Virus record (IMG/VR): IMGVR_UViG_3300044453_000274
Span: 1 to 37,445 of that record
DNA: 37,445 nt
Reading direction: 5' to 3' (one strand)
From: a virus
Taxonomy: Duplodnaviria > Caudoviricetes
Part shown: positions 10,256 through 35,667 of the stretch, piece by piece
Numbering within the stretch: position 1 is the stretch's first letter
Layout of the letters: each line of letters starts with the position of its first letter
Notes under the pieces: model-generated
Database searches by the model: none
Told to the model about the DNA's origin: nothing
Seen by the model: the letters and a program-made list of their open reading frames with translations, nothing else
Position numbers and translations under genes: made by a program

Positions 10256-10507
10256 TTAAAGTGTTGGCTTTACAGGCCATACAACATCGTCTGGATTAGT
10301 ATAATCCTGAGGTATATCTCTTAGTGCTTGGCGATAGCTTTTAAATTCCTCAGTCAATACTTCCCCCGTTTCATTGCTTTTTGTAACATACCAATCTGTC
10401 GCTTTTAAATGAGCATCTCTAATAGCCTTAACGGTCGACCACTTACCAAACTCTAAAATATCTTCAATAGGCATTTGCGATTCTATTGAACTCAAATCTT
10501 TTTCCAT
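10256..10507 (-). CDS. Tail fibre assembly chaperone, module 4
   Basis: IRDAHLKATDWY...YRQALRDIPQ...VVWPVKP motif. Start is ATG 10507 (GGAG RBS). Confidence 0.82.
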   Translation of the reverse strand: MEKDLSSIESQMPIEDILEFGKWSTVKAIRDAHLKATDWYVTKSNETGEVLTEEFKSYRQALRDIPQDYTNPDDVVWPVKPTL

Positions 10508-10509
10508 GA

Positions 10510-11316
10510 TTATTGCTCCCATGTCGGTTTTTCTTGCGTGATATAATTTACAGAAGGCTGACCTAAGTGTGACGTATATTTTGTGTCAACTGAAATAGCG
10601 CGAGTTGAACCACAATGTGGTCTAGTGTCAACTTTTAAAGAAACTCTAGCTACCCCCTGGTTGTATCCCTGCCCAATAGAACGGTATGAAACAGGTAAAG
10701 TTGTACCTTCCATAGCTGTAGTAAGAGGGATCTCTTTTTCTAAATTATTTGGCTCTGAAATAAACACGCTTAAGCTGCTGTCATTCGCTATTTTCTTAAC
10801 TTCTAGCTGACACGCAACGGAGTCTTGATAAGAAGTCCCTGTAAATATTAAATGGTCTGTATATCCTTCTGTTGCATACATACCTCGGTGGCACATCATA
10901 AATTCAATTTTGAAGTAGTCTCCATAATCGCCATAAGTAAAATAGCTCGATGAAGGATTAAACTCCAACATATTGATGTAATATGGAGGTTGGGGGTTCG
11001 AGCAATATGGATAAGCAGAATCAGGCCCATCCGTTTCATGAGTCCACCCCCCCGTCTGTAAGACTCGTTGAAATGAAAAATGTTTTTCATTGCCTATTTT
11101 TGTTACATCAATGCCATTAATTGTTTCTACAATTGAGTTTTTCCAATTATTAAACTCTGTTTCTGCACTTGTAATTAGTTGGTCAACCTCTGCTGACTTT
11201 GTAGCTACTGCGGCATCGATATGGCCAATTTTGTCTTGTACAGTTTGGGTGAGATTATCGGCGGCGACCACCACGTCCGTGAGCCTTTGGCTCATGGGTT
11301 TTTCTTGATTTGACAT
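10510..11316 (-). CDS. Putative receptor-binding protein, module 4 (N-terminal coiled coil plus variable aromatic-rich domain)
   Basis: Sits between the fibre anchor and chaperone. The N-terminus (LTDVVVAADNLTQTVQDKI) resembles those of the other RBP genes. Confidence 0.65.
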   Translation of the reverse strand: MSNQEKPMSQRLTDVVVAADNLTQTVQDKIGHIDAAVATKSAEVDQLITSAETEFNNWKNSIVETINGIDVTKIGNEKHFSFQRVLQTGGWTHETDGPDSAYPYCSNPQPPYYINMLEFNPSSSYFTYGDYGDYFKIEFMMCHRGMYATEGYTDHLIFTGTSYQDSVACQLEVKKIANDSSLSVFISEPNNLEKEIPLTTAMEGTTLPVSYRSIGQGYNQGVARVSLKVDTRPHCGSTRAISVDTKYTSHLGQPSVNYITQEKPTWEQ

Positions 11317-11338
11317 TGTATTTCCTTAATTTGGTTAA

Positions 11339-11896
11339 TTAAGCTTGTTCAAGCGCAACCAAGCGAAGCTCTTGTTCAATTTGGCGTTGCATGGTGTTGA
11401 GTTGAACCAAGCTCATATCAGCTAACTCTCTGTCTACAATGAGATTCAGATTATCAACGCCAACTTTTACCTCCACACTCTGAGAAGGCAATTGGGCCAA
11501 CGATAAGGTTAGCCACTGAAGTACTTTTACATCTGGAGTACGGTACCCCAATGTGGTATTTGGCTTAGAATAAACCCCCAGTAAAATCAGCTCAGGCTCA
11601 CCTTCACCGCTGTCGTTTGGTGATTCAATGAATACCCCGATTTCACGAATGGCATACTCAATAGGCGCATCAAACTTGCCTGCTACTTTTAAGCTGCTGC
11701 CTTCGCCATCGGAATAATCCGTGTCGGCAATCGCGACCCGTTCTTTTTCGCCCTTCAATGCTGTTTGAGTTTTATCTGGTGTGTACGCACTGTCACCAAA
11801 TGCCATGTGGCTGATTTTGCCTTTAAAACCGCGCTGTGTGGCGGTCATCAACGCGTCTAAACCAGCTTGAGTAAATTGCAAGGTTAATGCAGACAT
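11339..11896 (-). CDS. Short tail fibre anchor (gpH N-terminal-like domain only), module 4
   Basis: FTQAGL, ISHMAFGD, YAIREIGVF and LLGVYS motifs; 185 aa ending in an amphipathic helix. Confidence 0.8.
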   Translation of the reverse strand: MSALTLQFTQAGLDALMTATQRGFKGKISHMAFGDSAYTPDKTQTALKGEKERVAIADTDYSDGEGSSLKVAGKFDAPIEYAIREIGVFIESPNDSGEGEPELILLGVYSKPNTTLGYRTPDVKVLQWLTLSLAQLPSQSVEVKVGVDNLNLIVDRELADMSLVQLNTMQRQIEQELRLVALEQA

Positions 11897-12838
11897 TTAC
11901 GTCGCTCCTTGTAGAGTAAGATAAGTAAGTTGAAGTTGAGACAGTGCAGCTGACGCCACCGTCGTAGCAGAGCATGGCTCAGGCCATACTCCTCGCCAAT
12001 TTGCTTGCGCCTCTATTGCTGCCATATTCACTTGGCCATAGCCATGTAGGTCTATGCCTGTGGCCATTGCATTTGGTACCACTCCTGTCATATCAAACGC
12101 GTGGTCTAACGTGCCAGTTCCTGTTTGACTTGCAAGCACAGCGCTCAGTGTGGCCTCGGTATCATTTGGCGTCACACCGCTAAAGTTACCTTGCTGCTGC
12201 AAAGTACCCACTCCAGGTTGCGCGTTAAGCGATGCAGCTAGATCAACATAGCCGGCATCAGGCCTCACCCCGTTGAAGACGCCTTCCTTGGAGAATAACC
12301 CCGTCCTTGCACTCGAATGTAAACCCATGCCAATTTGTTCTTTTAACGAGATCCCCAACTGAACGTCAACATGAATAGAGGCACGTTTAACGGTATCAAT
12401 TATGCGCTTAACTTGCGCAAGCATTGCTCTGGTTAGTAACCCTTCTTCGTTACTATCGAGGTTTTCGTTCACCATGGCGTTAACCACGATGGTGCCAGGC
12501 TGGGCATCTTTTTGATGCCACCACTCACGAATGTCAGTTTCAATATTTAAACTGTCTAAGGCTGTTTTTAAGGCAAACGGTGTGGCTTTGTATTGATGTA
12601 CCACGAACGCATCATCAATTATTTGTCGTTTGGTGTGCTCTGACCACGCATCGTTCCAATCATCTACCGACAACGCCCAAGCCAACCAAGGCAATAACTC
12701 GGCAGGGCAATCCTGAGGGTGCCAAATGTGTGTGAGTATGTGTGTTTGCGCAGGAGATGTTAATAATTCAGCCAGTGAGCGCATTAACATTGACGCATTG
12801 TGTGGCAACAGATCAGGTAACGCTTTAACGTCGCTCAT
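11897..12838 (-). CDS. gpI: Tail protein I, module 4, with C-terminal 31-aa repeats
   Basis: LLPHNAS and WHPQDCPAELLPWLAWALSVDDW...W.E..KR motifs. Confidence 0.92.
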   Translation of the reverse strand: MSDVKALPDLLPHNASMLMRSLAELLTSPAQTHILTHIWHPQDCPAELLPWLAWALSVDDWNDAWSEHTKRQIIDDAFVVHQYKATPFALKTALDSLNIETDIREWWHQKDAQPGTIVVNAMVNENLDSNEEGLLTRAMLAQVKRIIDTVKRASIHVDVQLGISLKEQIGMGLHSSARTGLFSKEGVFNGVRPDAGYVDLAASLNAQPGVGTLQQQGNFSGVTPNDTEATLSAVLASQTGTGTLDHAFDMTGVVPNAMATGIDLHGYGQVNMAAIEAQANWRGVWPEPCSATTVASAALSQLQLTYLTLQGAT

Positions 12839-13752
12839 TCATCACCTCGGTGCACACAAGACTTGATCACGATACCAGTACAATGTGCAACGCAGTCATT
12901 AGGGACTTTCACGTCTTTTAATGGACTTAATATTTGACCATTTTCCACACCAGGCTGATTGAGGGCGCTAAACAAGCCCATTTGGCTAATATCTCGTCCT
13001 AATAAAGTTTGCTGTGAGACATACTCGTCAAGCGCCGTTTTAACCGTTGCTTCAACACTGGATGCCGATGGCCCCGGTGCAATGACTAGGTTAACCTCAA
13101 TATCATACGGCACCACACTTGGCGAAAAAATCGACACCTTATCGCCCAACGGCCTTACTTTTGACGCGGTTTCACTCGGCCCGCTCCCATCAGGTAATAA
13201 GCCAAAATGGGTGCGTAACTTGTCAATTAATGCAGGTGAAGGCAAACCATGCTCTTCATGGCTCAGCACCGTAAGCTCTACAACACAAGGGTGTGGGCTG
13301 TGCACATACACATCTTTTACCCTCGGATCGGCTGATAAAGCATGAAACTGGTAAGCTTGCTTACTCCCCGCTGTATTTAAGCCTTCAAAGACCATTTGAA
13401 TACGGCGCCTAAAACGCGTATCGCTTTCTGCTGTATGGGTATTTAAGTCTGACGTTTGACGAGATAAATTGTATCGTGCAGCTATGGCGTCTAAATCATT
13501 CCCTGTTGCCGACGCCAACATATTACCTTTTATGGCATCATTCACTTTGCCATCGAATAACACCGCTTGATACGCCATCATTTCAAGCATAATGGTCAGA
13601 GGTTCTGACTCTAAAGTCAGAGCCTCTGCGTATTCTGGATGTTTGGTTAAGAGCTTTTCTTTAAGCGCTTTGAACTTTTGTTCATAGTCCAACACAGTGA
13701 TGCTATCGGGTAATGGTACTTTTGACATATCGAGTAAATTAAACATATTCAT
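12835..13752 (-). CDS. gpJ: Baseplate protein J, module 4
   Basis: LESEPL, MLASATGNDLD, ESDTRFRRRI, TAGSKQAY.FHALSADPRVKDV and VRPLGD motifs. Start is uncertain (13761 GTG or 13752 ATG). Confidence 0.93.
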   Translation of the reverse strand: MNMFNLLDMSKVPLPDSITVLDYEQKFKALKEKLLTKHPEYAEALTLESEPLTIMLEMMAYQAVLFDGKVNDAIKGNMLASATGNDLDAIAARYNLSRQTSDLNTHTAESDTRFRRRIQMVFEGLNTAGSKQAYQFHALSADPRVKDVYVHSPHPCVVELTVLSHEEHGLPSPALIDKLRTHFGLLPDGSGPSETASKVRPLGDKVSIFSPSVVPYDIEVNLVIAPGPSASSVEATVKTALDEYVSQQTLLGRDISQMGLFSALNQPGVENGQILSPLKDVKVPNDCVAHCTGIVIKSCVHRGDE

Positions 13753-13778: not shown

Positions 13779-13802
13779 AAAAAAACCTACACAAGGTGTA
13801 GG
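13779..13802 (-). terminator. Intrinsic terminator in the leader of module 4 gpJ
   Basis: Minus strand reads CCTACAC-CTT-GTGTAGG-TTTTTTT. Confidence 0.75.
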
Positions 13803-13895
13803 CTTAATGGGTGGAGTTGGAATCTATGTAAAACAAGTTATTATTTAAAAATAACACTGCGGTCTATCTTTTCTTTGATTAACCAGCTTAGGTAT

Positions 13896-13937
13896 ATATT
13901 ACCGGTTTTTACGGTTTGAAACAGGTCAATCCTGACC
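13896..13937 (-). promoter_or_regulatory. Putative activator-dependent promoter (dyad, 22 nt, then TAATAT)
   Basis: GGTCA-N4-TGACC at 13924-13937; minus-strand TAATAT at 13901-13896. Confidence 0.6.
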
Positions 13938-14031
13938 GTTTAAAAACGGTCAGAGTAATTCATCAAAACACGGTCTGAAACGCTCACTGACAGGGTTAAT
14001 CACCCCATCAAAACTGAATTAATACCTCAGT

Positions 14032-14074
14032 AAAAAAGCCGATTTAGTTAAACATTAAAGTCAACCAAACCGGC
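14032..14074 (-). terminator. Long-stem terminator-like hairpin in repeat copy 1
   Basis: Minus strand reads GCCGGTTTGGTTGA...TTAACTAAATCGGC-TTTTTT (with G-U pairs). Confidence 0.65.
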
Positions 14075-14168
14075 CTTATCTGGGCAAAGTAGATGTATAA
14101 GCAAACCTTCAAATCAGCTTACTGTGCTAGCTGCAATCCCTTTTGAGCTTGTTGTCTAGCATAGGGGT

Positions 14169-14210
14169 ATATTAACGTTTTTTTGGGTTTGTAACAGGTC
14201 AATCCTGACC
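14169..14210 (-). promoter_or_regulatory. Putative activator-dependent promoter, second copy
   Basis: GGTCA-N4-TGACC at 14197-14210; minus-strand TAATAT at 14174-14169; spacer of 22 nt. Confidence 0.58.
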
Positions 14211-14305
14211 GTTTAAAAACCGTTAAAATGATTCATCAGAACACGGTCTGAAACGCTCACTGACAGAAGTTAATCACCCCATCACAACTAAATTAACACC
14301 TCAGC

Positions 14306-14348
14306 AAAAAAGCCGATTTAGTTAAACGTTAAAGTCAACCAAACCGGC
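14306..14348 (-). terminator. Long-stem terminator-like hairpin in repeat copy 2
   Basis: Same stem and U-tract as 14032-14074. Confidence 0.65.
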
Positions 14349-14476
14349 CTTATCTGGGCAAAGTAGATGTATAAGCAAACCTTCAAATCAGCTAACCGTG
14401 CTAGCTGCAATCTCTTTTGAGCTTGTTGTCTAGCATGTTGCCGATGAGCTTTGTGCTTGATAATGTTTCAGATAAG

Positions 14477-14515: not shown

Positions 14516-14860
14516 TTAAATAATACTTCTAAAATGTGTTTCAACAGCGCTTTCTAATTGCGCTTGGGTTTTAAGCTCTGTGTCACTTTCAAAATGAATA
14601 TCACTTGAGGTATAACCGTTTGTGTTAGTGACATAAACAAGCGGTTCGTTGTTGTCATCTTTATGTCGCTGGCTTGGCCAATACTGCATTTCATAGTTAA
14701 CATAATGGCTTTGGTTACTGTGTGACTGTAATGTTTTATCGCTGTCTTGATTTAGCTCAATGCTGTTTGAGTTATTACAGTTTGCGCGTTTAATTTGCAC
14801 TACTGCTGCATCGTGAGAAAGCCCGTGTACGTCTGTAAATTTTGCTGTGAATGTGTTCAT
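14516..14860 (-). CDS. Hypothetical phage protein (fibre accessory?), module 3
   Basis: 114 aa ORF with an AAGGA RBS, co-oriented after the fibre gene. Confidence 0.7.
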   Translation of the reverse strand: MNTFTAKFTDVHGLSHDAAVVQIKRANCNNSNSIELNQDSDKTLQSHSNQSHYVNYEMQYWPSQRHKDDNNEPLVYVTNTNGYTSSDIHFESDTELKTQAQLESAVETHFRSII

Positions 14861-14881
14861 TTTTATCCTTAATATTTAAAA

Positions 14882-15361
14882 TTAATTGTTGATGTAAGCG
14901 TCAAATTCAAGTGTTTCAAAGGCCAATCTAAAAGGCGCACCAATGCGCTCAAGCCCTGTGTTTAAACGCTCGGCGGTGATGATGTAATTACCCGACTGTT
15001 CAAACTTGCCCTGCATTGTGATTTGGCCGTTTTGAATAGTGGCAACAAAACGTATGTCATCGACTGGTTGTGTTGCGTTAATGACTCGTTCAACCATGAC
15101 CATTAACTCGCTATCAGGGAGACCTTCGGCGTTTGCTGTGATTGTGAATGGCTCGTCTTTGGGTAGCCACCAGATAGCGCCAATTTTTTTGGCGTTGGAG
15201 CTGGTGACGGTGGTGTTTGATAATTGAATTATCAATTCGCTGCTAATGCTTCTGTCGATGTAAGTATATTCAACTATCGCACCTGAGCTTGCTTGCTCTC
15301 TAACACGCTCATTGTTAGCTGGTGTTGCGTTTATCCACTTGTTATTTCTGAAAACTTGCAT
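14882..15361 (-). CDS. Hypothetical phage protein (fibre accessory?), module 3
   Basis: 159 aa, abuts the upstream gene, AGGTGA RBS. Confidence 0.7.
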   Translation of the reverse strand: MQVFRNNKWINATPANNERVREQASSGAIVEYTYIDRSISSELIIQLSNTTVTSSNAKKIGAIWWLPKDEPFTITANAEGLPDSELMVMVERVINATQPVDDIRFVATIQNGQITMQGKFEQSGNYIITAERLNTGLERIGAPFRLAFETLEFDAYINN

Positions 15362-15763
15362 TTAATCACCTATTTCCCAAGCTAATTCTAATGAGATAGA
15401 TCGGCCGTTTTTTTGTTTGATACTGATACTTTCATCAGTTTTCCCGATGATACTTGTGTACACAGTTAATTGATCACCATCAGATTGATTGTTGATAAAT
15501 TCGTAATAGCCAATATCTACATAAAATGCATCAAACCCTCCATTCACCGATAAAGTGGCGTACGGCGATATTTGTTTGTCATCTATAAAGATTGCAACAT
15601 CTATTAGATTGCTATTTTTGCTATCAGGTAATAGCTTAGTGAGCTTAACGCGCTTACCCGGGGGCGGGGTAATTGTGAATGGTAAACCACCGAATTTATT
15701 GCCTGATAGCTCTGTCGGGCTAAAATCACTCGACGATGACAACGAGCTTACTTGTGTACTCAC
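15362..15763 (-). CDS. Hypothetical beta-rich protein coupled to the long fibre (possible fibre-tip adhesin)
   Basis: Probable GTG start at 15763 overlaps the fibre stop (TAGTG), with a GGAGA RBS. Confidence 0.65.
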   Translation of the reverse strand: MSTQVSSLSSSSDFSPTELSGNKFGGLPFTITPPPGKRVKLTKLLPDSKNSNLIDVAIFIDDKQISPYATLSVNGGFDAFYVDIGYYEFINNQSDGDQLTVYTSIIGKTDESISIKQKNGRSISLELAWEIGD

Positions 15764-18700
15764 TATTGCATCTCCCAATTTTTTTCTGAATTTAATATAA
15801 ATGTGAGCGTGCAATGTCTATCGAATAGCACGCTGGTGTCTGTAATCATGGTTGTGCCGCGCATCATTGCGATATGCTCAGCGCCATGGGTTTTAATTGT
15901 GGGTGTTACGGCCATGGCTTTTGATGTAACGACTGTTGTGCCCTCTGCTAAATTTGTGACACTGGGCAATGTAAACGTTTTGGTGGCGGTTAAATGGTTT
16001 TTACTGCTTGCGGTGAGTGTGCCGCTGGCTTTCACTGTGCGCTTTTCTGCGTAGCTTGAGATGTTGCCCTCATGTAATACGCGCCTGTTGTAGTCTGGGC
16101 CCGCGTAAATTTCGCCATTAACTCTTACATCTTTGTTAAACCAGTGGTTTGACAAAGATGTTACGTAATGACAATGATGAGAGTTTTGAGGGCCAATATC
16201 AACATAGCCGTGGTTTGTTTTAATTCTAAGTGAATTATCACTCCCTTTTGATAATTGCGTATTGCCATTTCCAAGTAACACTGCGCTGCGAAACTGAACC
16301 CATGTACTTTGATATTGCATTTTCATTGCCCAGTTATTTGCAATGTTATCTGAGCCTAAACCGCCCATTCCGATGTAACTATGTCCACCTCCTGTGTAGC
16401 TTAGGTGTAATGATGCACTATTATGACGACCACCTTCACCGAGTGAAATTCCCGCAGCCTGTTCATTGTGAGCATTGCCAGTACTCGCGCTATCGAGTGT
16501 TAGCCATGGGTTGTTTTTAGTGACTGTAATGTCACCATTTGTATTTATCGAATCTGCAAATTGCCACTTGCCGTTTGCTGTAACAAACGGCCAGTCTGAG
16601 CCGTAATTGATGACTAATCTACCTTCAGAACCAACCAAGGCACGTTTATTGCGAATCAATAAATCTTGACCGCCGTTTGTGTCAATCAATGAGTTTTCAA
16701 ATCGAGCAAGCTTGTCGCTTTTTTGGTGGTATTTATCGCTGAGCTTTGTGCCATTTTCGAAAAAACCGCCCGCATAAAATGCTGCGTTTCCTTGGGCTTT
16801 GAAAGTGCTGTCAGCACAAGCATGATATGCTCCCGCAAAACCATCAGCGTTAGAGTCCGTATACCATAAGTGGTCTATATTTGTAACACTGCCATTGGCA
16901 CAACTAACCACCCAAGCAGCGTCAGATAAAAAATTACGCCCATGCGTGGGCGTTGACTTATAAACAACTAAGTTGGCTCTTGCTTCACTAACAACCTGCG
17001 CTTTGGTTTTGCCTTCGAGTTTTGCTGAGTCTGCGGCTTTGGCGGTTTTGCCGAGATATTTACTATCAGACTCCGCTTTACTGTATACGCCTAGCTCGCC
17101 CGTTGTGGGTAAAAAGCCTTGATGAAAAACACGCTTGTCACTGCCATGACCCGCGTAAATTTCGCCACTTACTTGAATAGGTTTATTAAACCAATGCCTA
17201 GGTCTGTCTGTTTCATAATGACAATAGTTATTGTTCTGTGGGCCAACAAAAAGATAACCTTTTTCTGTGTTAAGCTTAAATGCAGCACTTTGGTTTAGTG
17301 CTGTATAATCTAAGCTACCACCTTTGATTTTGATGGGGTGATTAAACGACCATTTGCCCGTTGCGAATACATTCTCAAAATCATTACCATAATTCACATG
17401 CAAATTACTTTGTCCATCATGGGTATGACCGACAAGTGCGCGTTTATTGTGTATCTTTAAATCATTGGGGGTGAAATGAAAACCGCTTGAAGTGAGCTGT
17501 TGTAATTTGTCATGTTTATCTTGGTATTTGTCTTTTAAACTCGTCCCACCCTCAATAAAATTAGGTGATTTAACCGCGCCACGAAACTCCCAGTTGTTAT
17601 TAAGGAAATAATTCCTCGCTGTCCACTGATAATCACCGTGATCATTTCTAAAAAATGCAAAATAATCCGCACCTGCCCCTGTAGTTAATGGTGCGTTATC
17701 ACCATTGTATTCAATACCGCCACCACAACGTAATGACTGACCAACGTATACACGGCCTGCTGTTTGACCATTTGCATAATCATCTGAGCTCACGTTCAAC
17801 GTTGCCATACCGTTGCTATCAGCATTAATATTCACCGTGGTACTGGTGCCATTGTCAAAGGTGGCATTTTTAAATGTTGGTGAAGTATTTACTTGAGCAA
17901 GCCCGTTTCTCGCTTCGCTAATGACCTCTGCTTTGGTTTTTCCTTCGAGTTTTGCTGAGTCTACTGCTTTTTCTGTTTTGCCAAGGTAGTTACTATCAGA
18001 CTCTACTTTACTGTATACACCTAGCTCGCCCGTTGTAGGTAAAAAACCTTGATGAAAAACACGTTTGTTATGGCCCGAACCCGCGTAAATTTCGCCATTT
18101 ACTTGAACTTGTGTATTAAACCAGTGGTTAGTTCTGTCTGTTTCATAATGACAATGGATATTGTTCTGCGGTCCAATAAATAAATAGCCATTTTCTGTGT
18201 TTAGCTTAAACGTATTACCGTACCCGCCTGATTTATAATCTAAGCTACCACCTTTGATTTTGATGGGGTGATTAAACGACCATTTGCCCGTTGCGAATAC
18301 ATTCTCAAAATCATTACCATAATTCACATGCAAATTACTTTGTCCATCATGGGTATGACCGACAAGTGCGCGTTTATTGTGTATCTTTAAATCATTGGGG
18401 GTGAAATGAAAACCGCTTGAAGTGAGCTGTTGTAATTTGTCATGTTTATCTTGGTATTTGTCTTTTAAACTCGTCCCACCCTCAATAAAATTAGGTGATT
18501 TAACCGCGCCGCGAAATTCCCAGTCGTTGTTTGAATGTAAGTTTTTAGCAGTCCAATGTAATTGGCCTTGGCTTCTTCTAAACAACGTAACATAGTCAGC
18601 ACCCGCGCCCGTCGTTACTGGGTTATTGTTACCGTTGTACTCAATGCCACCACCATGCCGGAGCGATTGCCCCACATATACACGACCTGTGGTTTGTGCA

Positions 18701-26718: not shown

Positions 26719-26846
26719 GTAAACCTCTATATGACCTACTCGTAGGCACACGTTACCTAATCCACATACAAATGAGTGAACTTCCAAAAAATGTAAGTTG
26801 GTGTATTTTGAAAAAACGCGTGCTTAAGTAAGCGAATGATTGGTTA

Positions 26847-27158
26847 TTAAAGTGGAAGTAAAAGCGGAAAACGTTGTTTTATCTCGGTAACTTTGTCTTT
26901 CCATTGTTGCTTTTTGAGCGCTGACTCATCAAATAAATATTCCATGTACAAAGGATCAGACTCTTCCTTATAAGCTAACTTTCGTTGCCGTTTTATTTGA
27001 TTATTTTTATGTTGTTCAATCGCTTCAAATACCGTTTCTGCTTCAATGCCTTTATGGATCCCATAGCCTACTACCCGCCCCTCAATGACTGGAAGTTGTG
27101 TTTCTGGATCGAGCAGACTGTCTATGTCGAAATATTCAAATTGATTTACTTTAAGCAT
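26847..27158 (-). CDS. Putative tail fibre assembly chaperone, module 2
   Basis: RKLAYKEESDPLYMEY...W...IKQRFP, a motif shared with the genes at 30616 and 31953. Confidence 0.7.
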   Translation of the reverse strand: MLKVNQFEYFDIDSLLDPETQLPVIEGRVVGYGIHKGIEAETVFEAIEQHKNNQIKRQRKLAYKEESDPLYMEYLFDESALKKQQWKDKVTEIKQRFPLLLPL

Positions 27159-28089
27159 GGCTACCTCCAAAAGTTTCGCCTGTCATTGGCTTTTTCATGT
27201 CATCAGGATCGTCTAGTGCGAATAACTGCGGTGACGCAATAAAGCATTCGAGATCAAGGTCATTATCACCACTGGCAAAATTTTGTTGGTTTAATGCATT
27301 ACCACAATACCTGTTTGTTTCAATTACAAACTCTATGAATTGAAAAGGGTGCGCTGCTTGCGTTGGCTGGAATTGTGTACTCGGCAACTTAATTTGACCA
27401 TTAATACTTCGGTTATACCCGGAGTGATTTCCAAAAATAAGCGTGCCTTTTTTGACATGAATCCATGCTCTGAATAAAAACCTGCCACCTGTAAAAGCCA
27501 AGTTTTTACCCACATTTAAACCTATAGAGGCACTATTTGGGCTAGTCGAACTTTGTCTCGGAATGGTTATTTTACTGATAAATCCTTGTTGTTTTAACCC
27601 GCTCCATTCAGGTGATTTTAAGCCGCCTGAACTCATGATCTGTTTGTGCCTTAGGTGTGCAAAAATTGGTTTTTCAGGTGAGGCCAACCATGGGTCATCA
27701 GTAAAGTTCTCTGGTTGTGATAACTGTGCTTCTTTCACACTCAAATGGTGATAACGTGTGCCAAAAGCGAAATTATCTTGACTCACCACCTTCAACTGAG
27801 CTTCTCCCCTTGGTAAAAATGGGGGGGAATTAGGAATTCTGCGCTCTGCGCCGTCAACGATTTCTGAAACGGTGTTAAAAAGCCAAGGATCCATTAGTAA
27901 ATTGCCACCGACAATTCGGTGTTTGAGTAAATCTTCTGCAAATTCAGTCATTGACTGCTCTGCACCTCGTACTTTTTGGTTTATATCTCCAAGTTTTTCG
28001 GTAATTTCTTGAGTTAACTCATTATTTGAATGAACTAATTGAGCATTGGTTTGTTGTAAATTAACCAAATGTTCTTCAAAGGTTGGCAT
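27151..28089 (-). CDS. Putative receptor-binding protein, module 2
   Basis: N-terminal coiled coil (SNNELTQEITEKLGDINQKV) then GNLLMD; lies between anchor and chaperone. Confidence 0.65.
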   Translation of the reverse strand: MPTFEEHLVNLQQTNAQLVHSNNELTQEITEKLGDINQKVRGAEQSMTEFAEDLLKHRIVGGNLLMDPWLFNTVSEIVDGAERRIPNSPPFLPRGEAQLKVVSQDNFAFGTRYHHLSVKEAQLSQPENFTDDPWLASPEKPIFAHLRHKQIMSSGGLKSPEWSGLKQQGFISKITIPRQSSTSPNSASIGLNVGKNLAFTGGRFLFRAWIHVKKGTLIFGNHSGYNRSINGQIKLPSTQFQPTQAAHPFQFIEFVIETNRYCGNALNQQNFASGDNDLDLECFIASPQLFALDDPDDMKKPMTGETFGGSHA

Positions 28090-28093: not shown

Positions 28094-28636
28094 TTATACT
28101 CCTAATGATAAAAGTCTATCGTTAAATTGAATTTGTCGGTAATTTGAAGCGATCTGTGCCTGTGCAATTTGTGCACTGGCTAAAGTCATAGCCATGAATT
28201 CTTCACCTAGAAATAGGTTTAATTCGCCATTGCTGTTGATCTCTATGTTGTTTATAGGCACTGCACTAAGCACCAAATCAAACCCTTGGACAATCTGAGC
28301 CATCGGTGTTTGATAAAATAAGACATTAGTTGGGTCTGACCACACAGCAAATAAAGTACCGTCTGATAAATAAAACCCGACTTCTTTCACTGCATATTCA
28401 CTGTCACTGTTAAACTTTCCTGTGAGATGTAATTGTCCGTTACCAAGGTTTTTACCACCTGTCACGACTGTTCTATTCACCTCTGATTTGAGAGCAACTT
28501 GATTTCGTGTTGGTTCATAACCTTGAGTGCCAACAGCAATATGTGAAATGTGTATATTGATATTGCTGGTTTTCGCAGCGACGGCAGCATTTAGTCCTGC
28601 TTGTGTTATTGTGGGTGTATAGTTATTCATCTGCAT
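28094..28636 (-). CDS. Short tail fibre anchor, module 2
   Basis: ITQAGL, ISHIAVG and YAVKEVGFYLSDGTLFAVWS motifs; 180 aa. Confidence 0.82.
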   Translation of the reverse strand: MQMNNYTPTITQAGLNAAVAAKTSNINIHISHIAVGTQGYEPTRNQVALKSEVNRTVVTGGKNLGNGQLHLTGKFNSDSEYAVKEVGFYLSDGTLFAVWSDPTNVLFYQTPMAQIVQGFDLVLSAVPINNIEINSNGELNLFLGEEFMAMTLASAQIAQAQIASNYRQIQFNDRLLSLGV

Positions 28637-29349
28637 ACCATGGTTGAGTGATTAAAAAGGATAAGTGACTGCGCAGCTACTGAGTGTAAATTGGCAATCA
28701 GAAGCTGATTAGGGCCTGCCTTAACCATATTTCTTTGCACACTTGTAGCGTGTGTGGTTGAGCAAACATGCAATGTGTTGGCTGAAAAATCAAAATGAGT
28801 CTGCTGAGATAAATCAACCCTTTGTAAAAGCGCATTGCTTAAAGATGCTCCCGCATAGACGGAGCTGCTTTGCGAATTAGTAATATTAATATGCATTTTT
28901 GTTCGCAATGGCTTAGTAGTAACAATTGCACGCCATAATTGATGCTGTAATTGTGCAGTTAGCTTCGGAGTGTTATCGACGTTGCGATTTTTATCATTTT
29001 CAGCGACGATTTTTGCACTATGTGAGAGACCCTGTGTTTGCCATTCTTCCTCTACTTGCGCTGTGATGTTTAGTGCTTCTATGGCAGACTTTATTGAACT
29101 GATCGTACCTTTAATGCGATGCATCGGTACGCTATCAGCAATCACTTGACGTTTGACTTGCTCTGGCCAATCATTATTCCAACTATCTACACTCAAGCCA
29201 TGCGCAAGCCAAGGTAAAAAAGATTCAGGGCATTGCCATGGGTCCCAAAGATGCTGATTCAAAATTGGGATCTTTTCAATTTTAGCCGCACTTAATGAAA
29301 TCGCATGTTCAAGCTTTGAACTCGATATAGGAAGTAACGGGTCGTCCAT
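28627..29349 (-). CDS. gpI: Tail protein I, module 2
   Basis: LLPISSSKLE, LWDPWQCPESFLPWLA.GLSVDSW and HRIKGT motifs. Confidence 0.92.
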   Translation of the reverse strand: MDDPLLPISSSKLEHAISLSAAKIEKIPILNQHLWDPWQCPESFLPWLAHGLSVDSWNNDWPEQVKRQVIADSVPMHRIKGTISSIKSAIEALNITAQVEEEWQTQGLSHSAKIVAENDKNRNVDNTPKLTAQLQHQLWRAIVTTKPLRTKMHINITNSQSSSVYAGASLSNALLQRVDLSQQTHFDFSANTLHVCSTTHATSVQRNMVKAGPNQLLIANLHSVAAQSLILFNHSTMVCR

Positions 29350-29350
29350 T

Positions 29351-30313
29351 TTAAGCCTCCAAAGCGATTTTTAACTGAGAACAAAATGGTGCTTCTTGAG
29401 GTGCCACTTTTATATCTTTGGTTGGACTGATTAAGTTAACACGCTTAACACCTGCTTGATGTAAAACGGCATATAAACTAGAAAGAGAAATATCATGACC
29501 TAACTTATATTGTGAAGTTAACCAAGTTACACATTGCTGCTCTACCTGAGCAACAATGTCTTGTGCATTCGGTCCATCGTAAAGCGCTAGTGTTGCTTCA
29601 ATTTTGAAGCTATTGATCGCTGCTGGTCTAACATGGACTCGATCTGTAAGAGGTCTGATATCTTCACGATTCAAATGAGTGTCTACCGCATTGATGATTT
29701 CTTGTGTTGCATAACCATCGCCTTGGTCACTTAATACAGTGATTACGACATCTCCTGGTTGAGCATTATCTAAACCCGCTTTATGCGTTGAACGCAATAA
29801 AATAATATCTTCTGGAAGGTGTTTTGATAACTCACTGGGTAAAGTGTATTCCTCAAATTCAGGGGCATCAACAAAGACGTCTTTTACATGCGGTGACGCT
29901 TTCAATGTGTGAAATACATAGGCACCGGCTGGGCCAGCCGTACTAAAACCTTCCAATGCGAGTCCTATTCGAGATCGGTAACGCTCATCACTTTCTTCAG
30001 TGCCCTCTTGACTTAATTCCCTATTGACACCAAAGCGTGCCCCCAAATAATTTAGTTCTTTATTTGTTGCCTTTGCCAAAAGTACATGTTGCGCTCCCTC
30101 ATTGATTCGTTGACGCAGCAGTAATTCTCTATAAGCAAATGTTTCTAACAATTTAATAATAGGCTCACTGGGCAGAACGGTTTCAAAATCTGGATAACGA
30201 GCATGAAATTCTTCGAGAATATTGTTTTTTAAAACATCAAAGCTCAGTGGCTCGATGAGTTCTGGTGAAGGTAATTGGTTGAAATCTATAGCACTAAAAT
30301 TTGTTAAGCTCAT
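29351..30313 (-). CDS. gpJ: Baseplate protein J, module 2
   Basis: IDFNQLPSPELIE, AYRELLLRQRINE, FSTAGPAGAY.FH and IRPLTDRV motifs. Confidence 0.93.
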   Translation of the reverse strand: MSLTNFSAIDFNQLPSPELIEPLSFDVLKNNILEEFHARYPDFETVLPSEPIIKLLETFAYRELLLRQRINEGAQHVLLAKATNKELNYLGARFGVNRELSQEGTEESDERYRSRIGLALEGFSTAGPAGAYVFHTLKASPHVKDVFVDAPEFEEYTLPSELSKHLPEDIILLRSTHKAGLDNAQPGDVVITVLSDQGDGYATQEIINAVDTHLNREDIRPLTDRVHVRPAAINSFKIEATLALYDGPNAQDIVAQVEQQCVTWLTSQYKLGHDISLSSLYAVLHQAGVKRVNLISPTKDIKVAPQEAPFCSQLKIALEA

Positions 30314-30349: not shown

Positions 30350-30474
30350 TTACCCATCAGCCCTCTTGTTGAAAGAGTGCGTTTTATTGTCTATGTCTTG
30401 AATTTTGTTATTTACAATCGTATTGAGGTCATTTAGACCTCGATGAGTTTGGCAATATTTTGTTTTTATGCCAT
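30350..30474 (-). pseudogene. Relic of a third MALEQDIA-type receptor-binding gene
   Basis: Minus strand TATGGAGAAAACACC-ATG GCA TAA AAA CAA AAT ATT GCC AAA CTC ATC GAG reads MA*KQNIAKLIE. After a frameshift it reads NDLNTIVNNKIQDIDNK. This matches the leader and N-terminus of the 31799 gene. Confidence 0.85.
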
Positions 30475-30615: not shown

Positions 30616-30915
30616 TTATTTTGGAAATTGTGCTTTAACGGCTTCACGCTGTGTTAACCAAGCGGTTTTTGCTGTGTTTGCCTGTGCAGACGAGTCGCCA
30701 AACTCAGCTACGGCTGCCATATAATCAAAGAACAAATAATCGCTTTGTGCGCTGTAGCTTTTTCTGCGTAATTTTTGTACTTCATCGGTATTGAAAATCA
30801 CTTCAAAGTCGTCTGCGGCAACGCCCGCTTCTTCTGCAATATGTGCTCCATGGGCTAAATCTTTAATACCACCAGCAAAGTGAGTTTGCGTAGAGATTTG
30901 TTTTAATATCGCCAT
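30616..30915 (-). CDS. Putative tail fibre assembly chaperone, module 1b
   Basis: RRKSYSAQSDYLFFDY...W...REAVKAQFPK; paralogue of 31953-32264. Confidence 0.72.
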   Translation of the reverse strand: MAILKQISTQTHFAGGIKDLAHGAHIAEEAGVAADDFEVIFNTDEVQKLRRKSYSAQSDYLFFDYMAAVAEFGDSSAQANTAKTAWLTQREAVKAQFPK

Positions 30916-30917
30916 GA

Positions 30918-31799
30918 TTATGCTCCTTCAGCAACAGTTGGACCAACGTGAGAATATGGATGACCCACGCTGTCAGCCCAGATCATGTTATTGCCATGAT
31001 CGCCCATCCCGACATAAGGTAATGCTATCGCTACTTTCATTTTGCCAAGACCGATAAACTTTGGCTGATGGCACCCCCCCCAACCAGCTCTCGTTGCATG
31101 CTTATATTGCCAGCCCTTATGCAGATCAGAGCTATCGACTCTAATTGATGCAGAACGATTTGAAGATGGGTAAAACTTCATATTGCCAGTAACGTCTAGC
31201 ACATTAACCCAACAACTGGCTTGAGTTAAGAATTCACCACGCCCCCAACCTGTAAAAGTAGGACAACCTTGATTGAAAACAAATAGCAAACCATTATTGG
31301 CGTCGTCTTCTCTGCCTTTGGTTATTTCTACGTCGAACACAATCACTTTAAAATCTGTGCCATAGAATGTATTGGATTCTGAGCGGTAATCTCCTAAAGC
31401 CCGCGACTTAAAATCATCATTTGCCGCAAGTCCATATTGTGACAACATCTTTGTGTTGAGTTTAGTGACGGTACTCACCCCTTCTGTGCCTTGATAATAA
31501 AAGCAACTCCAAGGAGCCGCGTGAGACTGTAATACATCCACCGCGGTCCCTTCAGGCTGACCTGCATTTATATGCTCAAAGTGTTTCGTATCTGACAGCA
31601 TATTCGGCCCCAAGGGCAGCGCCTTTTGAAAGGTCGATATTTTTCTTTCAACAGCTTGCTCTTTCGCTGATAATTTAGCGTCTATTTCTTGCTTTTTTTG
31701 TTCTAAATGCGCTGTGATGTTTTGAATTTTATTATCCACAACACTAGTAAGGCTATTAGATGCCTCAATTAAATTGGCAATATCTTGTTCTAATGCCAT
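30918..31799 (-). CDS. Putative receptor-binding protein 1b
   Basis: Start is ATG 31799 (GGAG RBS): MALEQDIANLIEASNSLTSVVDNK, followed by a Trp/Gly-rich domain. Confidence 0.68.
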   Translation of the reverse strand: MALEQDIANLIEASNSLTSVVDNKIQNITAHLEQKKQEIDAKLSAKEQAVERKISTFQKALPLGPNMLSDTKHFEHINAGQPEGTAVDVLQSHAAPWSCFYYQGTEGVSTVTKLNTKMLSQYGLAANDDFKSRALGDYRSESNTFYGTDFKVIVFDVEITKGREDDANNGLLFVFNQGCPTFTGWGRGEFLTQASCWVNVLDVTGNMKFYPSSNRSASIRVDSSDLHKGWQYKHATRAGWGGCHQPKFIGLGKMKVAIALPYVGMGDHGNNMIWADSVGHPYSHVGPTVAEGA

Positions 31800-31898
31800 G
31801 ATGTTTTCTCCATATGATTGTTGATGAGCCAAGCTGTATAAACCGATTGAAATAACATCACGATTAATACGACTGACTTGGACTCGGTGGTTGCGCAT

Positions 31899-31924
31899 AA
31901 AAAAACCCACCAAAAGGTGGGTTT
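31899..31924 (-). terminator. Intrinsic terminator between RBP/chaperone pairs
   Basis: Minus strand reads AAACCCACC-TTTT-GGTGGGTTT followed by TTTT. Confidence 0.8.
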
Positions 31925-31952
31925 AATTGTTGCTCGGTAAAAAGTTAACACT

Positions 31953-32264
31953 TTAAGGCTTTGGGTAATGGGCCTTAATAGAGTTACGTGCTGTTAGCCA
32001 GGCTGCTTTTGCAGCTTCGGCTTGCGTGCTTTGCTCACCAAATTCAGCTTGTGCTGCCAGGTAATCAAACGCTAAACCATCTGATTGCGACTGATAAGCA
32101 AAGCTTCGTGCATGCTGGCACTGCGCTTCTAGTTGCGCGTGTTTTGCTTGGGCAATGAGTCCAGCTACATCAGCTTGTGCTACGCCTAAGTCAAGCAAAG
32201 TTTTTTCTTCTGCAGGAACATTCACCATGTCGTTGCCTGCTACTGTAAGTTTTTCTAAAATCAT
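31953..32264 (-). CDS. Putative tail fibre assembly chaperone, module 1a
   Basis: ARSFAYQSQSDGLAFDY...W...RNSIKAHYPKP motif. Confidence 0.72.
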   Translation of the reverse strand: MILEKLTVAGNDMVNVPAEEKTLLDLGVAQADVAGLIAQAKHAQLEAQCQHARSFAYQSQSDGLAFDYLAAQAEFGEQSTQAEAAKAAWLTARNSIKAHYPKP

Positions 32265-32375
32265 CGTGTTTCCTTTGATTTTGATGTATGGCGTTTTGTG
32301 GTTACCACGTGGTTAGGTTAACCAGTAGCCATTTTTAATAATGTGTATTTCGCTGTGCGGTGTTTAAATATGACC

Positions 32376-33161
32376 CTACGCTGAAGCGGGTGCTGGTGGC
32401 GTATAAGGATGATTCACATAAGGAATGGTATTGGTAATAGGTGCTTTACGCTCAGAAAATGGAATGGGTTCAACAAACCAGCGTACAGTCCAATTACCTT
32501 GAGAGCTGTCATAGGTATTGCGTCGCTCCATATCGCTACCATCATGGAAAGCCACATCCCCTTTCCAATTTTTGGTAATACGATAAGTTAAACCACCTCC
32601 GCGCAAGTACAAGCCACTATATGTGCAATGCCAAGGGCCTAAGGTTCCATCTTCTCCCCCCCCATAAAAGTCTTTATTTGGATCAATCTTCTCAGCCTTA
32701 CATTGAAGACGAAAATCAACATGACTCACCGTATTATTATACCTTTCATGAAAGCGTTTAATATTCATGAAATTCGAATCACCATTCCATGCATATGCAT
32801 TGCCTTCTAACTCAAGCAAAAGTGCAGCCTGATGACCCGACGCTGAATTTAAAGGCTTTGTAGCTGAGTCCCAAGAATAGTGGCGACTCACGGTTAAATT
32901 ACTTACGCCTAATTCATTACCAGGAAAGCGCCACCAAACCGGATATAAATAATCTTTAGAACCACCGATTTTGATGGTTTGCACATACCTTGTTTCGGGG
33001 GTTGCACCTTGTATAAATTGGTCAACTTGTGCTTCTTTTGCTGCAACTCGGCTATCAAGTTGTGCCATTTTTGCATCTATGGTTTTTGCTTTGTTGTCAA
33101 TGACCGATGTGAGCTGGTTGGTTGATTCAACCAAGTTTGCGATATCTTGTTCTAATGCCAT
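32376..33161 (-). CDS. Putative receptor-binding protein 1a
   Basis: MALEQDIANLVESTNQLTSVIDNK, then YLYPVWW and GLYLRGGG motifs like those of phage fibre tips. Confidence 0.7.
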   Translation of the reverse strand: MALEQDIANLVESTNQLTSVIDNKAKTIDAKMAQLDSRVAAKEAQVDQFIQGATPETRYVQTIKIGGSKDYLYPVWWRFPGNELGVSNLTVSRHYSWDSATKPLNSASGHQAALLLELEGNAYAWNGDSNFMNIKRFHERYNNTVSHVDFRLQCKAEKIDPNKDFYGGGEDGTLGPWHCTYSGLYLRGGGLTYRITKNWKGDVAFHDGSDMERRNTYDSSQGNWTVRWFVEPIPFSERKAPITNTIPYVNHPYTPPAPASA

Positions 33162-33173: not shown

Positions 33174-33701
33174 TTATTTCAAAACACCTGCATCCATCAA
33201 TTCAAACTTTTGCTTGATATGACGGTACATATTGTCAATTTGTGCCGCGCCAAGCTTGGCAAGCTCCGGGGCAATTAAAATATTTAAATTAACACCTTGA
33301 TCAATGACTGTGATTGAGTCTGCTGGTACGCCTGTCAGTACAAGGTCAAACGCCAACAGCAAATCAACTTCTGATGATTTATATGCTATGGGTTTATCAG
33401 GATGTGAATAAACGGCAAATAAAGTACCGTCTTCTAAATAAAAGCCCACTTCGTTGACCCAAAAATTATGATGAGAATCGTCAATGACACTCATGTGAAT
33501 TTGTGCGTTGCCTTTGTCTTCTCCGCTGGCAACTGAAATTCGATGTACCTCAGCATCTAACGCTGAACGGCTTTGGTGTGGTTCATAGTTACCAGTACCT
33601 AGGCCTATTTTGTTAATTTTGGCTTGAAAACCATTCTTTTCAGAATTAAAAACTGCTTCTAAACCCGCAGTTGTTATGGTTGGCCGTAAGATTGTGCTCA
33701 C
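33174..33701 (-). CDS. Short tail fibre anchor, module 1
   Basis: ITTAGL and FWVNEVGFYLEDGTLFAVYS motifs; 175 aa; GTG start with AAGGAG RBS. Confidence 0.82.
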   Translation of the reverse strand: MSTILRPTITTAGLEAVFNSEKNGFQAKINKIGLGTGNYEPHQSRSALDAEVHRISVASGEDKGNAQIHMSVIDDSHHNFWVNEVGFYLEDGTLFAVYSHPDKPIAYKSSEVDLLLAFDLVLTGVPADSITVIDQGVNLNILIAPELAKLGAAQIDNMYRHIKQKFELMDAGVLK

Positions 33702-33918
33702 TGCACATACTCCTTAGGTTGATGTGAAATCAATCAGCCTTGTGTAAGTGACGCCAGCGTTAGTCTGCACGCACTTGCTATCGTCTCTTATCAAAGACTG
33801 CTTGACATAAGAAACAATAGAGTGATGTGTGGGGTTACTTAATATTTGATTACCTCCTTGTTGTCAGTTTGCTGCATTACTCCATGTAACGTCTCTTAAC
33901 TAAGTAAACGCCCTCTCT

Positions 33919-34833
33919 CTATTGAGGTGAATGAAGATAAAAGCGACCTACGCTGAAGCGTCGGTTGCTAAAATGACATGCAGCGGCCAAAGAAGACTGT
34001 AAGTAATGGCAACCTGCTGGTAATTTTTGGTCGTTACTCATATAAAAGCGACCCACACTGTGACGCTGGTTATGTAAATGTAGCCCTGCACCCAGCTCCG
34101 CGGTGAGTTCACCCGACACGGCTTGGGTTTTGCCATAATTGCGTTTAAGCCCATAACGGTGTTGATTCACAACAGTGAGGCCAGCGGTCATTTCTATGGG
34201 CGCGGCTTTCACCGGCACCGTGTTGTAGTTTATTCGTCCAACTTGCAAGCCGCTTGATGTCGCAGCAACCGTCACACCTAGATTTAATTTAGCGCCCACC
34301 AAAAAGTTAAAATGCGCTCTTTGCGGTTTAGTATGATTGGTAACGCGATAAATCGCGTCATATAGCGCTTGACTTAAAACCACTTGTTGGCTGGTATAAG
34401 GCGTTTCATTGGCCCAAGCTATAAACGTAAATGTATTGGGTTGACTTGAGTGATGAGGTGCTAAAGCCACATCATTAACGTCTTCAAACCATTCAAAAAA
34501 GTCAATTTTTACACCCAATGATGCAAGCGCCCTCTTTACTGAGCCCACTGTGCCTTTGTGCTTATGTATGGTGACTGACTCTTGAATTAACGCCCGCTTG
34601 GTTTCGGCCGACCATTGCTCGTCCCACTCATCAACAGACAAGCTCCATGCCAACCAGGGCAAAAGTTGTTCAGGGCACGTTGCTGGATCCCAATGTTTTG
34701 CTACATAATCAGGGATCGTTTTGCTAGGCGAAAAGTGTGATACTTGTTCAATTGATTGTTCTAACGCATTGGCATTCATAGGGAGCAAAGACTGAAACTG
34801 CTCACTTTCATGGCTATTATTGCTGTCTTTCAT
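33919..34833 (-). CDS. gpI: Tail protein I, module 1, with C-terminal repeats
   Basis: LLPMNANALE, WDPATCPEQLLPWLAWSLSVDEWD and HKHKGTVGSVKRAL motifs. Confidence 0.93.
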   Translation of the reverse strand: MKDSNNSHESEQFQSLLPMNANALEQSIEQVSHFSPSKTIPDYVAKHWDPATCPEQLLPWLAWSLSVDEWDEQWSAETKRALIQESVTIHKHKGTVGSVKRALASLGVKIDFFEWFEDVNDVALAPHHSSQPNTFTFIAWANETPYTSQQVVLSQALYDAIYRVTNHTKPQRAHFNFLVGAKLNLGVTVAATSSGLQVGRINYNTVPVKAAPIEMTAGLTVVNQHRYGLKRNYGKTQAVSGELTAELGAGLHLHNQRHSVGRFYMSNDQKLPAGCHYLQSSLAAACHFSNRRFSVGRFYLHSPQ

Positions 34834-34842
34834 CGTATCACC

Positions 34843-35667
34843 TTACATAAATGTGATCGTTGGTGCACTTGCGATAGCTGCTTGGCTTACCTCACAGGTG
34901 ATATCGTCTTGTGGTGATAATAGTTTTACCTTTCTGACACCCGATTGATGTAATGCATCAATTAAGCCTGAATGCGGTACTTCCTGCCCTAATTTGTAGT
35001 GCTGTAAAATAAATTCATTGAGAGAGGTGTTAATCTTTTCACTCACTGCCTGTTTATCGGCCCCGTCATGAAAGTAAATCTGGGCATGAATATCGTATGT
35101 TTTGGGTTGAACCATATGGACTTTAACAAGATCAGTGAGCGGTCTTACATCTTCGTCATTTAAATGTGTGCTCACCACATCAGCCAGTGTTTCACAATCG
35201 GCATTTTTTTCCGGGAGAACGAATACGTCAACCACCCCAGGGGCACTGGATGTGACATACACATCTTTCACACTGGCTGATGAGGCCAATGTTTGATACT
35301 CATAAGCCCCCATAGTCCCTGCCATGCTGTGGCTTTCTAGTGATAAAGGGATACGAGCTCGGTAGCGCTCGTCACTTTCTTTTGCCCCTCTTTCCACACC
35401 AAATAACACGCCTAAATGATTGAGATCTTCGCCTGTTGCATAAGCGACCATGACGGAACGAGCAGCGTCATTGATACGCTGTCGCAGCAATAATTCGCGC
35501 TTAGCAGCAATATCTAACAACTTAATCGCAGGGTCAGATGCGAGTACCGTATAGTTTGGAAAAGACTTTACCAGTGCGTTTTCCATTTGCTGATAAATAT
35601 CATCGTATTTAAGGGGCTCTATCACATCTGGCACCGCCAATCGTGATAATTCAATTGCATTGTTCAA
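34843..35667 (-). CDS. gpJ: Baseplate protein J, module 1
   Basis: RELLLRQRINDAAR, YATGEDL, ESDERYRARI and VRPLTDLV motifs; TTG start with AGGAG RBS. Confidence 0.93.
   Translation of the reverse strand: MNNAIELSRLAVPDVIEPLKYDDIYQQMENALVKSFPNYTVLASDPAIKLLDIAAKRELLLRQRINDAARSVMVAYATGEDLNHLGVLFGVERGAKESDERYRARIPLSLESHSMAGTMGAYEYQTLASSASVKDVYVTSSAPGVVDVFVLPEKNADCETLADVVSTHLNDEDVRPLTDLVKVHMVQPKTYDIHAQIYFHDGADKQAVSEKINTSLNEFILQHYKLGQEVPHSGLIDALHQSGVRKVKLLSPQDDITCEVSQAAIASAPTITFM

Follow-up and report, generated by a model that had tools for sequence, protein, structure and literature searches.

What does a single contractile tail do with four complete baseplate wedges? This question is raised by the virus-database record IMGVR_UViG_3300044453_000274 (Duplodnaviria; Caudoviricetes), whose 37,445 nucleotides were analysed at full length and are here called the window. 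The contig spans exactly the stretch from a gene for a helix-turn-helix (HTH) regulator to gpD of a P2-like tail, and 43 open reading frames (ORFs) in it were scanned for gene families. Judged from sequence, it is a headless P2-like contractile-tail locus that is fixed in the chromosome of marine Pseudoalteromonas and likely works as an R-type tailocin, and one lysing cell would likely release several particle types with different targets. To the more specific proposal that these particles have mostly pure rings, each closed by wedges of one class, we give a probability of roughly one half, and we favour it over mosaic, conditional and non-bactericidal readings.

Four modules lie on the minus strand, as do all genes of the window named below, and each begins with a gpJ gene of the Pfam family Baseplate_J (PF04865), a gpI gene of Tail_P2_I (PF09684) and a PF12571 tail-collar gene. 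These are gpJ1 (34843-35667), gpI1 (33919-34833) and H1 (33174-33701) in module 1, together 33174-35667; gpJ2 (29351-30313), gpI2 (28627-29349) and H2 (28094-28636) in module 2, together 28094-30313; gpJ3 (19905-20810), gpI3 (19303-19908) and H3 (15763-19290) in module 3, which extends over 14516-20810; and gpJ4 (12835-13752), gpI4 (11897-12838) and H4 (11339-11896) in module 4, at 10256-13752. All of these genes are free of stops, and pairwise identity over the aligned parts is 33-46% among the four gpJ and 30-42% among the four gpI copies, which bears out the four intact, strongly diverged pairs of the original prediction. The chassis genes (gpV, PAAR, gpW, sheath, tube, gpE, tape measure, gpU, gpX and gpD) are present in one copy each, and capsid, portal, terminase and integrase families have no match among the 43 ORFs; a single, headless chassis had been predicted as well.

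How, then, are the fibres attached? Each pair had been thought to be followed by its own fibre genes. A collar gene does follow all four pairs, but in modules 1, 2 and 4 it encodes a short adapter (175-185 aa) and the fibre heads are encoded separately, each head gene having a heptad-like stretch at its start and a small chaperone-like gene after it. Module 1 has the head candidates R1a (32376-33161) and R1b (30918-31913; the likely start lies about 38 codons inside the called ORF), which with their chaperone-like genes occupy 30616-33161, and the decayed start of a third head gene (30355-30474) with a stop at codon 3; this gene, R1c, is kept in close relatives. The fibre region of module 2 (21992-28089) holds R2a (27151-28089) with a chaperone, a 1159-aa fibre-like protein (23308-26787), and R2c (22344-23330) with its chaperone (21992-22333), while module 4 has R4 (10510-11316) and a chaperone (10256-10522). 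Module 3 instead carries a long fibre of the conventional, fused kind, H3, in which 310 aa are duplicated internally; genes of 150, 159 and 114 aa come after it. At the nucleotide level this duplication measures 930 nt inside window positions 16978-18528, and its copies are 85-98% identical. In one relative (G056; L096:12709-13404) the C-terminal helix motif of the module-1 adapter is present in a second copy, which would suit the docking of an additional head.

The predicted models of R1a and R4 (predicted local distance difference test, pLDDT, 71.7 and 86.5) consist of an N-terminal helix of 50-55 residues and an all-beta domain. For both, the best Foldseek row is the phage tailspike 6C72, with E-values (0.011 and 0.0031) that are below significance, and the structural comparison for R4 (VIA Z 6.5, root-mean-square deviation 3.6, 113 aligned) is within the range of common folds. 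Heads of the R1a/R4 type may be receptor-binding and may dock on the adapters. When PDB sequences were searched with H3 and with an alignment of H1, no match was obtained. About seven receptor-binding candidates had been proposed; this number does not stand, since the N-terminus of the 1159-aa ORF is related to F-type fibres and six candidates are left that fit the contractile tail. Residues 24-454 of that ORF are held in common with fibres that come after the central fibre of F-type tail clusters, and a coiled-coil middle leads to a C-terminal domain of about 600 aa without family match (no Pfam, PHROG or Atlas match; among shorter proteins it has 19 relatives, whose names are uninformative). 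The protein is under selection, with a ratio of nonsynonymous to synonymous substitution rates (dN/dS) of 0.07, yet there are no F-type genes in the window locus, and it is probably an orphan F-type fibre outside the contractile tail.

Could the layout be an artefact of a single record? With the 200-aa gene upstream of gpV as query, loci were found in Pseudoalteromonas aurantia, P. citrea, P. maricaloris and three further species. Matches to gpJ are present in 65 of 140 genomes of the genus, at least three in 50 of them and one in 15, and the same 50 genomes carry exactly one tube orthologue (at least 78% identity) and one close orthologue of a 118-aa gene of the window. The loci of 39 of these 50 were analysed, nine others being split over contigs and the contiguous G041 and G044 (our genome labels) left out; four of the 39 end before gpD. 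The same layout in 39 other genomes, in some on multi-megabase contigs, rules out misassembly, a worry that the original prediction had itself raised. Copies of gpJ per sheath across relatives, suggested there as a check, come to two to five intact classes against a single sheath in all 39 loci, in which gpV, gpW, the tube and the 200-aa gene are single as well. Across the whole genome, the sheath is matched once and gpJ five times in each of G008 and G046.

In 38 of the 39 loci ettA adjoins the locus, which in the closest relatives lies between ettA and eamA/metA. Head, packaging, replication and integration genes were not found in the cluster (window ORFs, relatives from ettA through gpD, and 33 representatives of unassigned ORF clusters); these 33 representatives also contain no invertases or recombinases, and their sole integration/excision-class match is a transposase. 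Portal (PF05136, PF04860) and terminase (PF03237) families have no match genome-wide in G007, G008, G009 and G046; in G010, the fifth genome tested, they are present at other places than the tail locus. On this gene content and position, the locus is a domesticated tail locus and not a prophage, because it has a fixed ettA site and no head genes, and because four of the five genomes are without portal or terminase families. Degraded tandem prophages were considered and ruled out, as the chassis genes are single and the modules are under selection. The dN/dS of the window gpJ and gpI genes against G007-G009 is 0.04-0.13, and below 0.26 for every pair with measurable dS, which indicates purifying selection; orthologues under 60% identity were dropped, so that J2 was compared with G008 only, and J3 against G009 was saturated. 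The proposal of a headless, tailocin-like locus with several wedge-plus-fibre modules on one chassis is upheld by its spread over 50 genomes, by the ettA site and by this selection. A complete contractile tail set (sheath, tube, tape measure, P2-like baseplate and fibres), a lysis cassette of its own, and domestication at a fixed chromosomal site under purifying selection all agree with an R-type tailocin.

Elsewhere the wedge pair appears to be single. When gpJ1 was compared with phage records, 542 records were matched at 542 places, one per record, in keeping with the premise that P2-type phages carry one J/I pair, and the phage-like contigs found with the adapter alignment show the ordinary V-W-J-I-collar-head-sheath order with one module. 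Outside this Pseudoalteromonas set, no gpI cluster was found in 400 class-level and 401 order-level genomes, which are samples only. Two sampled genomes with two gpI within 40 kb have separate tails, each with its own gpW, and the class-level tally includes G184, a genome flagged as unpublished, whose two matches on different contigs support no claim.

Class trees, built from 27 of the 39 loci and the window, divide gpJ and gpI each into five old, monophyletic classes. Support for J2 is 0.27 in the locus-only tree and 0.997 once phage sequences are added. J3 and J4 are sisters (0.997), and since the other classes are not strongly grouped apart from phage gpJ, both duplication and capture are possible origins. 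Intact J1 and J5 are found in 38 of the 39 loci each, J4 in 37, J2 in 34 and J3 in 16; twelve loci have five intact classes, 23 have four, three have three, and one (G135) has two. Every intact gpJ is followed by a gpI of the same class (164/164). The window contains classes 1-4, so the four modules first described are right for this stretch but fall short of the wider family, in which there is a fifth class. Class 5 travels in relatives with PF25691 and DUF4815 genes, its module lying in close relatives just upstream of an array that corresponds to window positions 13783-14436. In L020:131-17881 the class-5 module comes with genes of 397, 105, 493 and 142 aa, and some loci have one or two fibres of about 1100 aa. 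Since each of classes 2-5 is missing from some locus, class 5 from the window itself, each of them is dispensable.

Would wedges of different classes join in one ring? In solved relatives the wedge is a (gpJ)2-gpI triplex, and the C-terminal domains of gpJ join neighbouring wedges (PMC10996793). Residues 191-272 of gpJ1 align to the C-terminal domain of R2 pyocin, and identity over this domain is 50% inside a class and 26% from class to class. Its second helix is presumably the wedge-to-wedge contact, as it reportedly is in the R2 pyocin structure. On this helix, J1 has E229, P231 and D237 in 39/39 sequences, and the residues at these positions in single-gpJ phage loci are D, T and A (22/25 each, after four rows, three of this tailocin family and one fragment, were dropped); J5 has P232 and W234 in 38/38, and J3 has K231 in 17/17. 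Class-specific invariant residues on the presumed contact helix suggest a choice of partner, and the free loss of classes 2-5 suggests independent modules; it is on these two grounds that mostly pure rings, and with them several particle types, are favoured. The original prediction had left a choice between several particle types and mosaic six-fold baseplates, of which the second, combinatorial at the wedge level, is less likely, because it is the presumed wedge-to-wedge helix that carries the class-specific invariants.

Several points weigh against pure rings. The contact helix is itself an assumption carried over from R2 pyocin, and L/F239, kept throughout, together with S233 and H240 in four of the five classes, would permit mixed dimers. 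Classes 1, 2, 4 and 5 occur together in most loci and no locus has one class only, which an obligate mixed ring predicts as well, and J1 is never cleanly deleted (in G135 it is frameshifted). Class distances correlate only moderately with those of the core genes (Spearman 0.21-0.76, 25 genomes), so that modules are exchanged as well as inherited. Moreover, the heads behind one adapter have near-identical N-termini, and mixing of heads within one module is therefore probably tolerated.

Part of this evidence speaks for mosaic baseplates, in which wedges of different classes would share one six-membered ring, at random or ordered by complementary C-terminal surfaces, and one particle would bear several fibre types. 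One gpW, one hub and one tape measure serve all classes, modules 1, 2 and 5 stand downstream of a single promoter-like motif in most loci, and to the largely common S233, L239 and H240 and the lack of one-class loci may be added that the invariant acidic residues of J1 could be complementary to the basic ones of J3 and many J4. However, a number of classes that varies from 3 to 5, with classes 2-5 each dispensable, is a misfit with a fixed ring on a three-fold hub, the low identity of the C-terminal domain between classes speaks for separation, and mixed fibres would lower avidity if firing needs several bound fibres (PMC10598620). We therefore hold mosaic baseplates to be a tentative possibility. 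That the five gpJ classes carry an assembly code on the surface where wedges meet, leading to ordered, non-six-fold baseplates with several fibre systems per particle, seems doubtful to us; if true, it would amount to a multi-specific nanosyringe of natural origin, with wedges exchanged as complete cassettes among pigmented Pseudoalteromonas.

A promoter-like motif, GG(T/G)CA-N4-TGACC, forms an inverted repeat that overlaps a -35-like hexamer. The 39 loci contain it 171 times on the coding strand and 30 times on the opposite one, against none in five shuffles of 137 kb. It stands ahead of the HTH gene in 37/39 loci, ahead of gpJ4 in 37/37 (in one to six copies) and directly ahead of gpJ3 in 9/16; where gpJ4 is absent (G010, G135), it stands ahead of the core genes. 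Within the window it is located at 21123, in a conserved element upstream of gpJ3 (21070-21123, minus strand), and at 14210 and 13937, in tandem units of about 274 nt (13783-14436, minus strand) that precede gpJ4 and the core genes and combine the motif with leaders and terminator-like hairpins. Arrays of this type (window, L020, L024, L033, loci of 37 genomes) have one to six units, with a copy number that varies by lineage, and their leader of about 135 nt, well conserved in the closest relatives of the window, could be a small RNA. The repeats as a whole were rejected as multicopy small RNAs: there is no Rfam match, covariation is seen in 1/38 pairs, and the element that they have in common is the promoter-like motif. 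Terminator-like hairpins are located at 31924, 30532, 14499, 13805 and 8157. A general sigma-70 scan remained at chance level (36 found vs 44.7, and 32 vs 34.9).

The HTH gene (37173-37445), the first of the locus, comes after ettA in relatives and is followed by the gene of the 118-aa protein (36839-37195), a candidate Q-type antiterminator. An Atlas cluster score of 0.97, with PF06530 on 12% of the cluster members, makes this a weak Q-like lead, and the assignment has no Pfam or PDB support, which counts against a part of the scheme favoured here. Taken together, the arrangement suggests antiterminated late transcription with several entry points. In 16/16 relatives examined, the 330 nt that precede the HTH gene contain no LexA-type box, the window itself ending at the HTH start. 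Contigs from four RNA runs span the modules in the locus of a relative, but they also span most of its genome and cannot show transcription; contigs from gpJ4 to gpE have a higher mean depth than the other modules in three RNA runs and are flat in one unlabelled run, a difference that is a lead only, as contig depth cannot rank genes.

With such a promoter layout, modules could also be conditional, one wedge class being used at a time, most likely that of module 4, and the others under other cues or in other cells. Module 4 and the core genes are on one promoter array, gpJ4 never lacks the motif, the motif moves to the core when gpJ4 is absent and directly precedes many gpJ3, and terminator-like hairpins mark module borders. 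Nevertheless, one motif at all sites suggests one regulator, the lysis genes needed for release sit between the first motif and module 1, and the representatives of unassigned ORFs include neither invertase nor recombinase, so that we consider this improbable. Switching by inversion or from silent cassettes was rejected separately: no invertase was found, and the gpJ copies are too diverged.

The lysis cassette (35756-36815) is made up of an endolysin (PF00959; 36399-36815), a holin with three transmembrane segments (PF11351; 36001-36468) and a conserved 82-aa protein (35756-36004). Downstream of module 4 follow the single-copy genes of the 200-aa protein (9584-10186), the gpV spike (8901-9587), PAAR (8599-8901) and gpW (8209-8544), together 8209-10186, and then, at 1-8140, those of the sheath, tube, gpE chaperone, tape measure (1696-5547), gpU, gpX and gpD. 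The tube family is tail tube in Pfam (PF04985) and is labelled 'head closure' in PHROGs. Is a bactericidal function the best guess for this set? A satellite or tail-part donor for helper phages, or a device for adhesion or against eukaryotes, would agree with the PAAR gene, since R-tailocins lack PAAR according to a review (PMC10598620), and with the weak matches of the head folds. Against this, PAAR has no call in 5/39 loci, four genomes are without portal and terminase families and G010 has them elsewhere, and the locus is complete in its chassis and brings a lysis cassette of its own, while no ATPase or effector-like gene of extracellular contractile injection systems (eCIS) was recognised among the window ORFs and the 33 cluster representatives. 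A non-antibacterial role is very improbable in our view.

The favoured scheme of pure rings would thus run as follows. The HTH and Q-like proteins would switch on late transcription past the internal terminators, and each module would build its own (gpJ)2-gpI wedge, gpJ pairing with its own gpI. The adapter on gpI would carry one to three heads of coiled coil plus beta-sandwich, or in module 3 the fused fibre instead, and all wedge classes would dock on the single gpW and hub. Class-specific residues of the gpJ C-terminal helix would favour like-with-like ring closure, which would keep six fibres of the same class together and so preserve avidity. Holin and endolysin would release the particles, which would puncture competitor cells. 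If wedges do sort themselves in this way, one chassis provides several specificities with undiluted avidity; if rings are mixed, there is a contractile baseplate with unequal wedges. Both outcomes would be new. In either case the locus supplies naturally diverged parts with which one can test how many matched fibres a contractile tail requires for firing, and it is at hand in culturable type strains (P. citrea DSM 8771 and P. maricaloris LMG 19692).

The loci vary in further respects. Their unassigned ORFs are fibre-like genes, transposases, an F-type tail cluster and a nonribosomal peptide synthetase (NRPS) cluster. The NRPS cluster (about 5640 and 3880 aa) is inserted in the tail locus between modules 2 and 3 in G007 (C7 135994-164586) and G008 (C21 423802-452352), with transporter genes on the other strand. 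A siphophage-like F-type cluster of tube, chaperone, tape measure, distal tail, hub and central fibre genes lies within the locus in G022 and G032, or adjoins it in G010 (C1 from 1152639). Window positions 21570-21652 are a dispersed chromosomal repeat of about 84 bp, with at least 10 to about 40 matches per genome in G006-G009. Whole parts are gained and lost at the strain level in L071 (5555-5699 and 7320-12034), where contigs from public runs reveal an insertion of 4.3 kb behind gpI5 (X9 and X13) and a join across the entire module 2 (X13). A divergent copy in G135 (C1 1752001-1792000), to which L142 and L123 look related, is not at ettA and has, in this order, J1 (frameshifted), J5 and J2, without J4. 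The tape measure of the window contains at least ten 43-aa repeats (129-nt period) and then a lysine-rich linker, and among relatives its length varies from about 940 to 1730 aa.

How does the locus compare with known systems? One of the closest is R2 pyocin of Pseudomonas aeruginosa (triplex protein PA0618; PDB 6U5B, 5CES), which is also a P2-like contractile tail without a head and has lysis genes; gpJ1 can be aligned to PA0618 across residues 5-272 (E 9.6e-44). In diffocin, and by the same nomenclature in R pyocins, one triplex type makes all six wedges (PMC10996793). In contrast to R2 pyocin, the locus has four or five wedge classes per chassis, three of them with short adapters and separate heads, and in place of the one gpJ and one gpI per sheath of classic P2 and R pyocins there are four in the window and two to five intact classes in 39/39 loci. 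Multi-fibre tailocins, such as those of Pseudomonas chlororaphis with three fibre genes and kosakonicin, resemble the locus in having several fibre and chaperone genes per cluster. Those of P. chlororaphis reportedly have one baseplate per tailocin, with the fibres on one wedge. Distinct killing spectra are reported for them in PMC6629978, which describes fibre and chaperone as the multiplied parts, whereas in the locus multiplication includes the gpJ/gpI wedge along with the fibre.

The module itself has counterparts in Vibrio phage VPHZ6 and the hapunaviruses VP882 and phiHAP-1, which also have gpJ, gpI, a collar adapter of about 180 aa, and separate head and chaperone genes. In VPHZ6 this J-I-short collar-head-chaperone unit occurs once. 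Unlike the locus, these phages have heads and a single module, placed between gpW and the sheath. In the locus the module is multiplied and located upstream of V-W, and the capsid, portal and terminase genes of a P2-like or hapunavirus-like prophage are missing. The class-5-adjacent PF25691 and DUF4815 genes of relatives, absent from the window, match baseplate proteins (ORF64, ORF65) of PDB 9EUF/9TIC, which we take to be Staphylococcus phage 812. P. luteoviolacea's metamorphosis-associated contractile structures (MACs), an eCIS of Afp/PVC type, share the genus and the contractile tail, and they too are released by lysis. An AAA ATPase is a mark of eCIS, and no such family (Cis15) was recognised among the window ORFs; unlike MACs, the locus is P2-like and includes a tape measure as well as fibres of the phage type. 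PMC12210884 lists Cis15 for the typing of type VI secretion and contractile injection systems.

The layout was new to the author of the original prediction, and our full-text literature search likewise yielded no account of one tail with several gpJ/gpI pairs, although supplements, which were outside the search, could list the cluster. The locus may have been seen earlier without its wedge multiplicity being described, as a second, 'bacteriocin' tail cluster in P. luteoviolacea is reported to have been noted in the 2014 MAC paper. By gene content it is apparently a variant of the R-type tailocin with an undescribed layout. In known tailocins and P2-like phages it is the fibre through which targets are varied, and the wedge is treated as one fixed part. 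In this locus, entire cassettes of wedge and fibre have been multiplied, and a large clade of marine bacteria has retained them.

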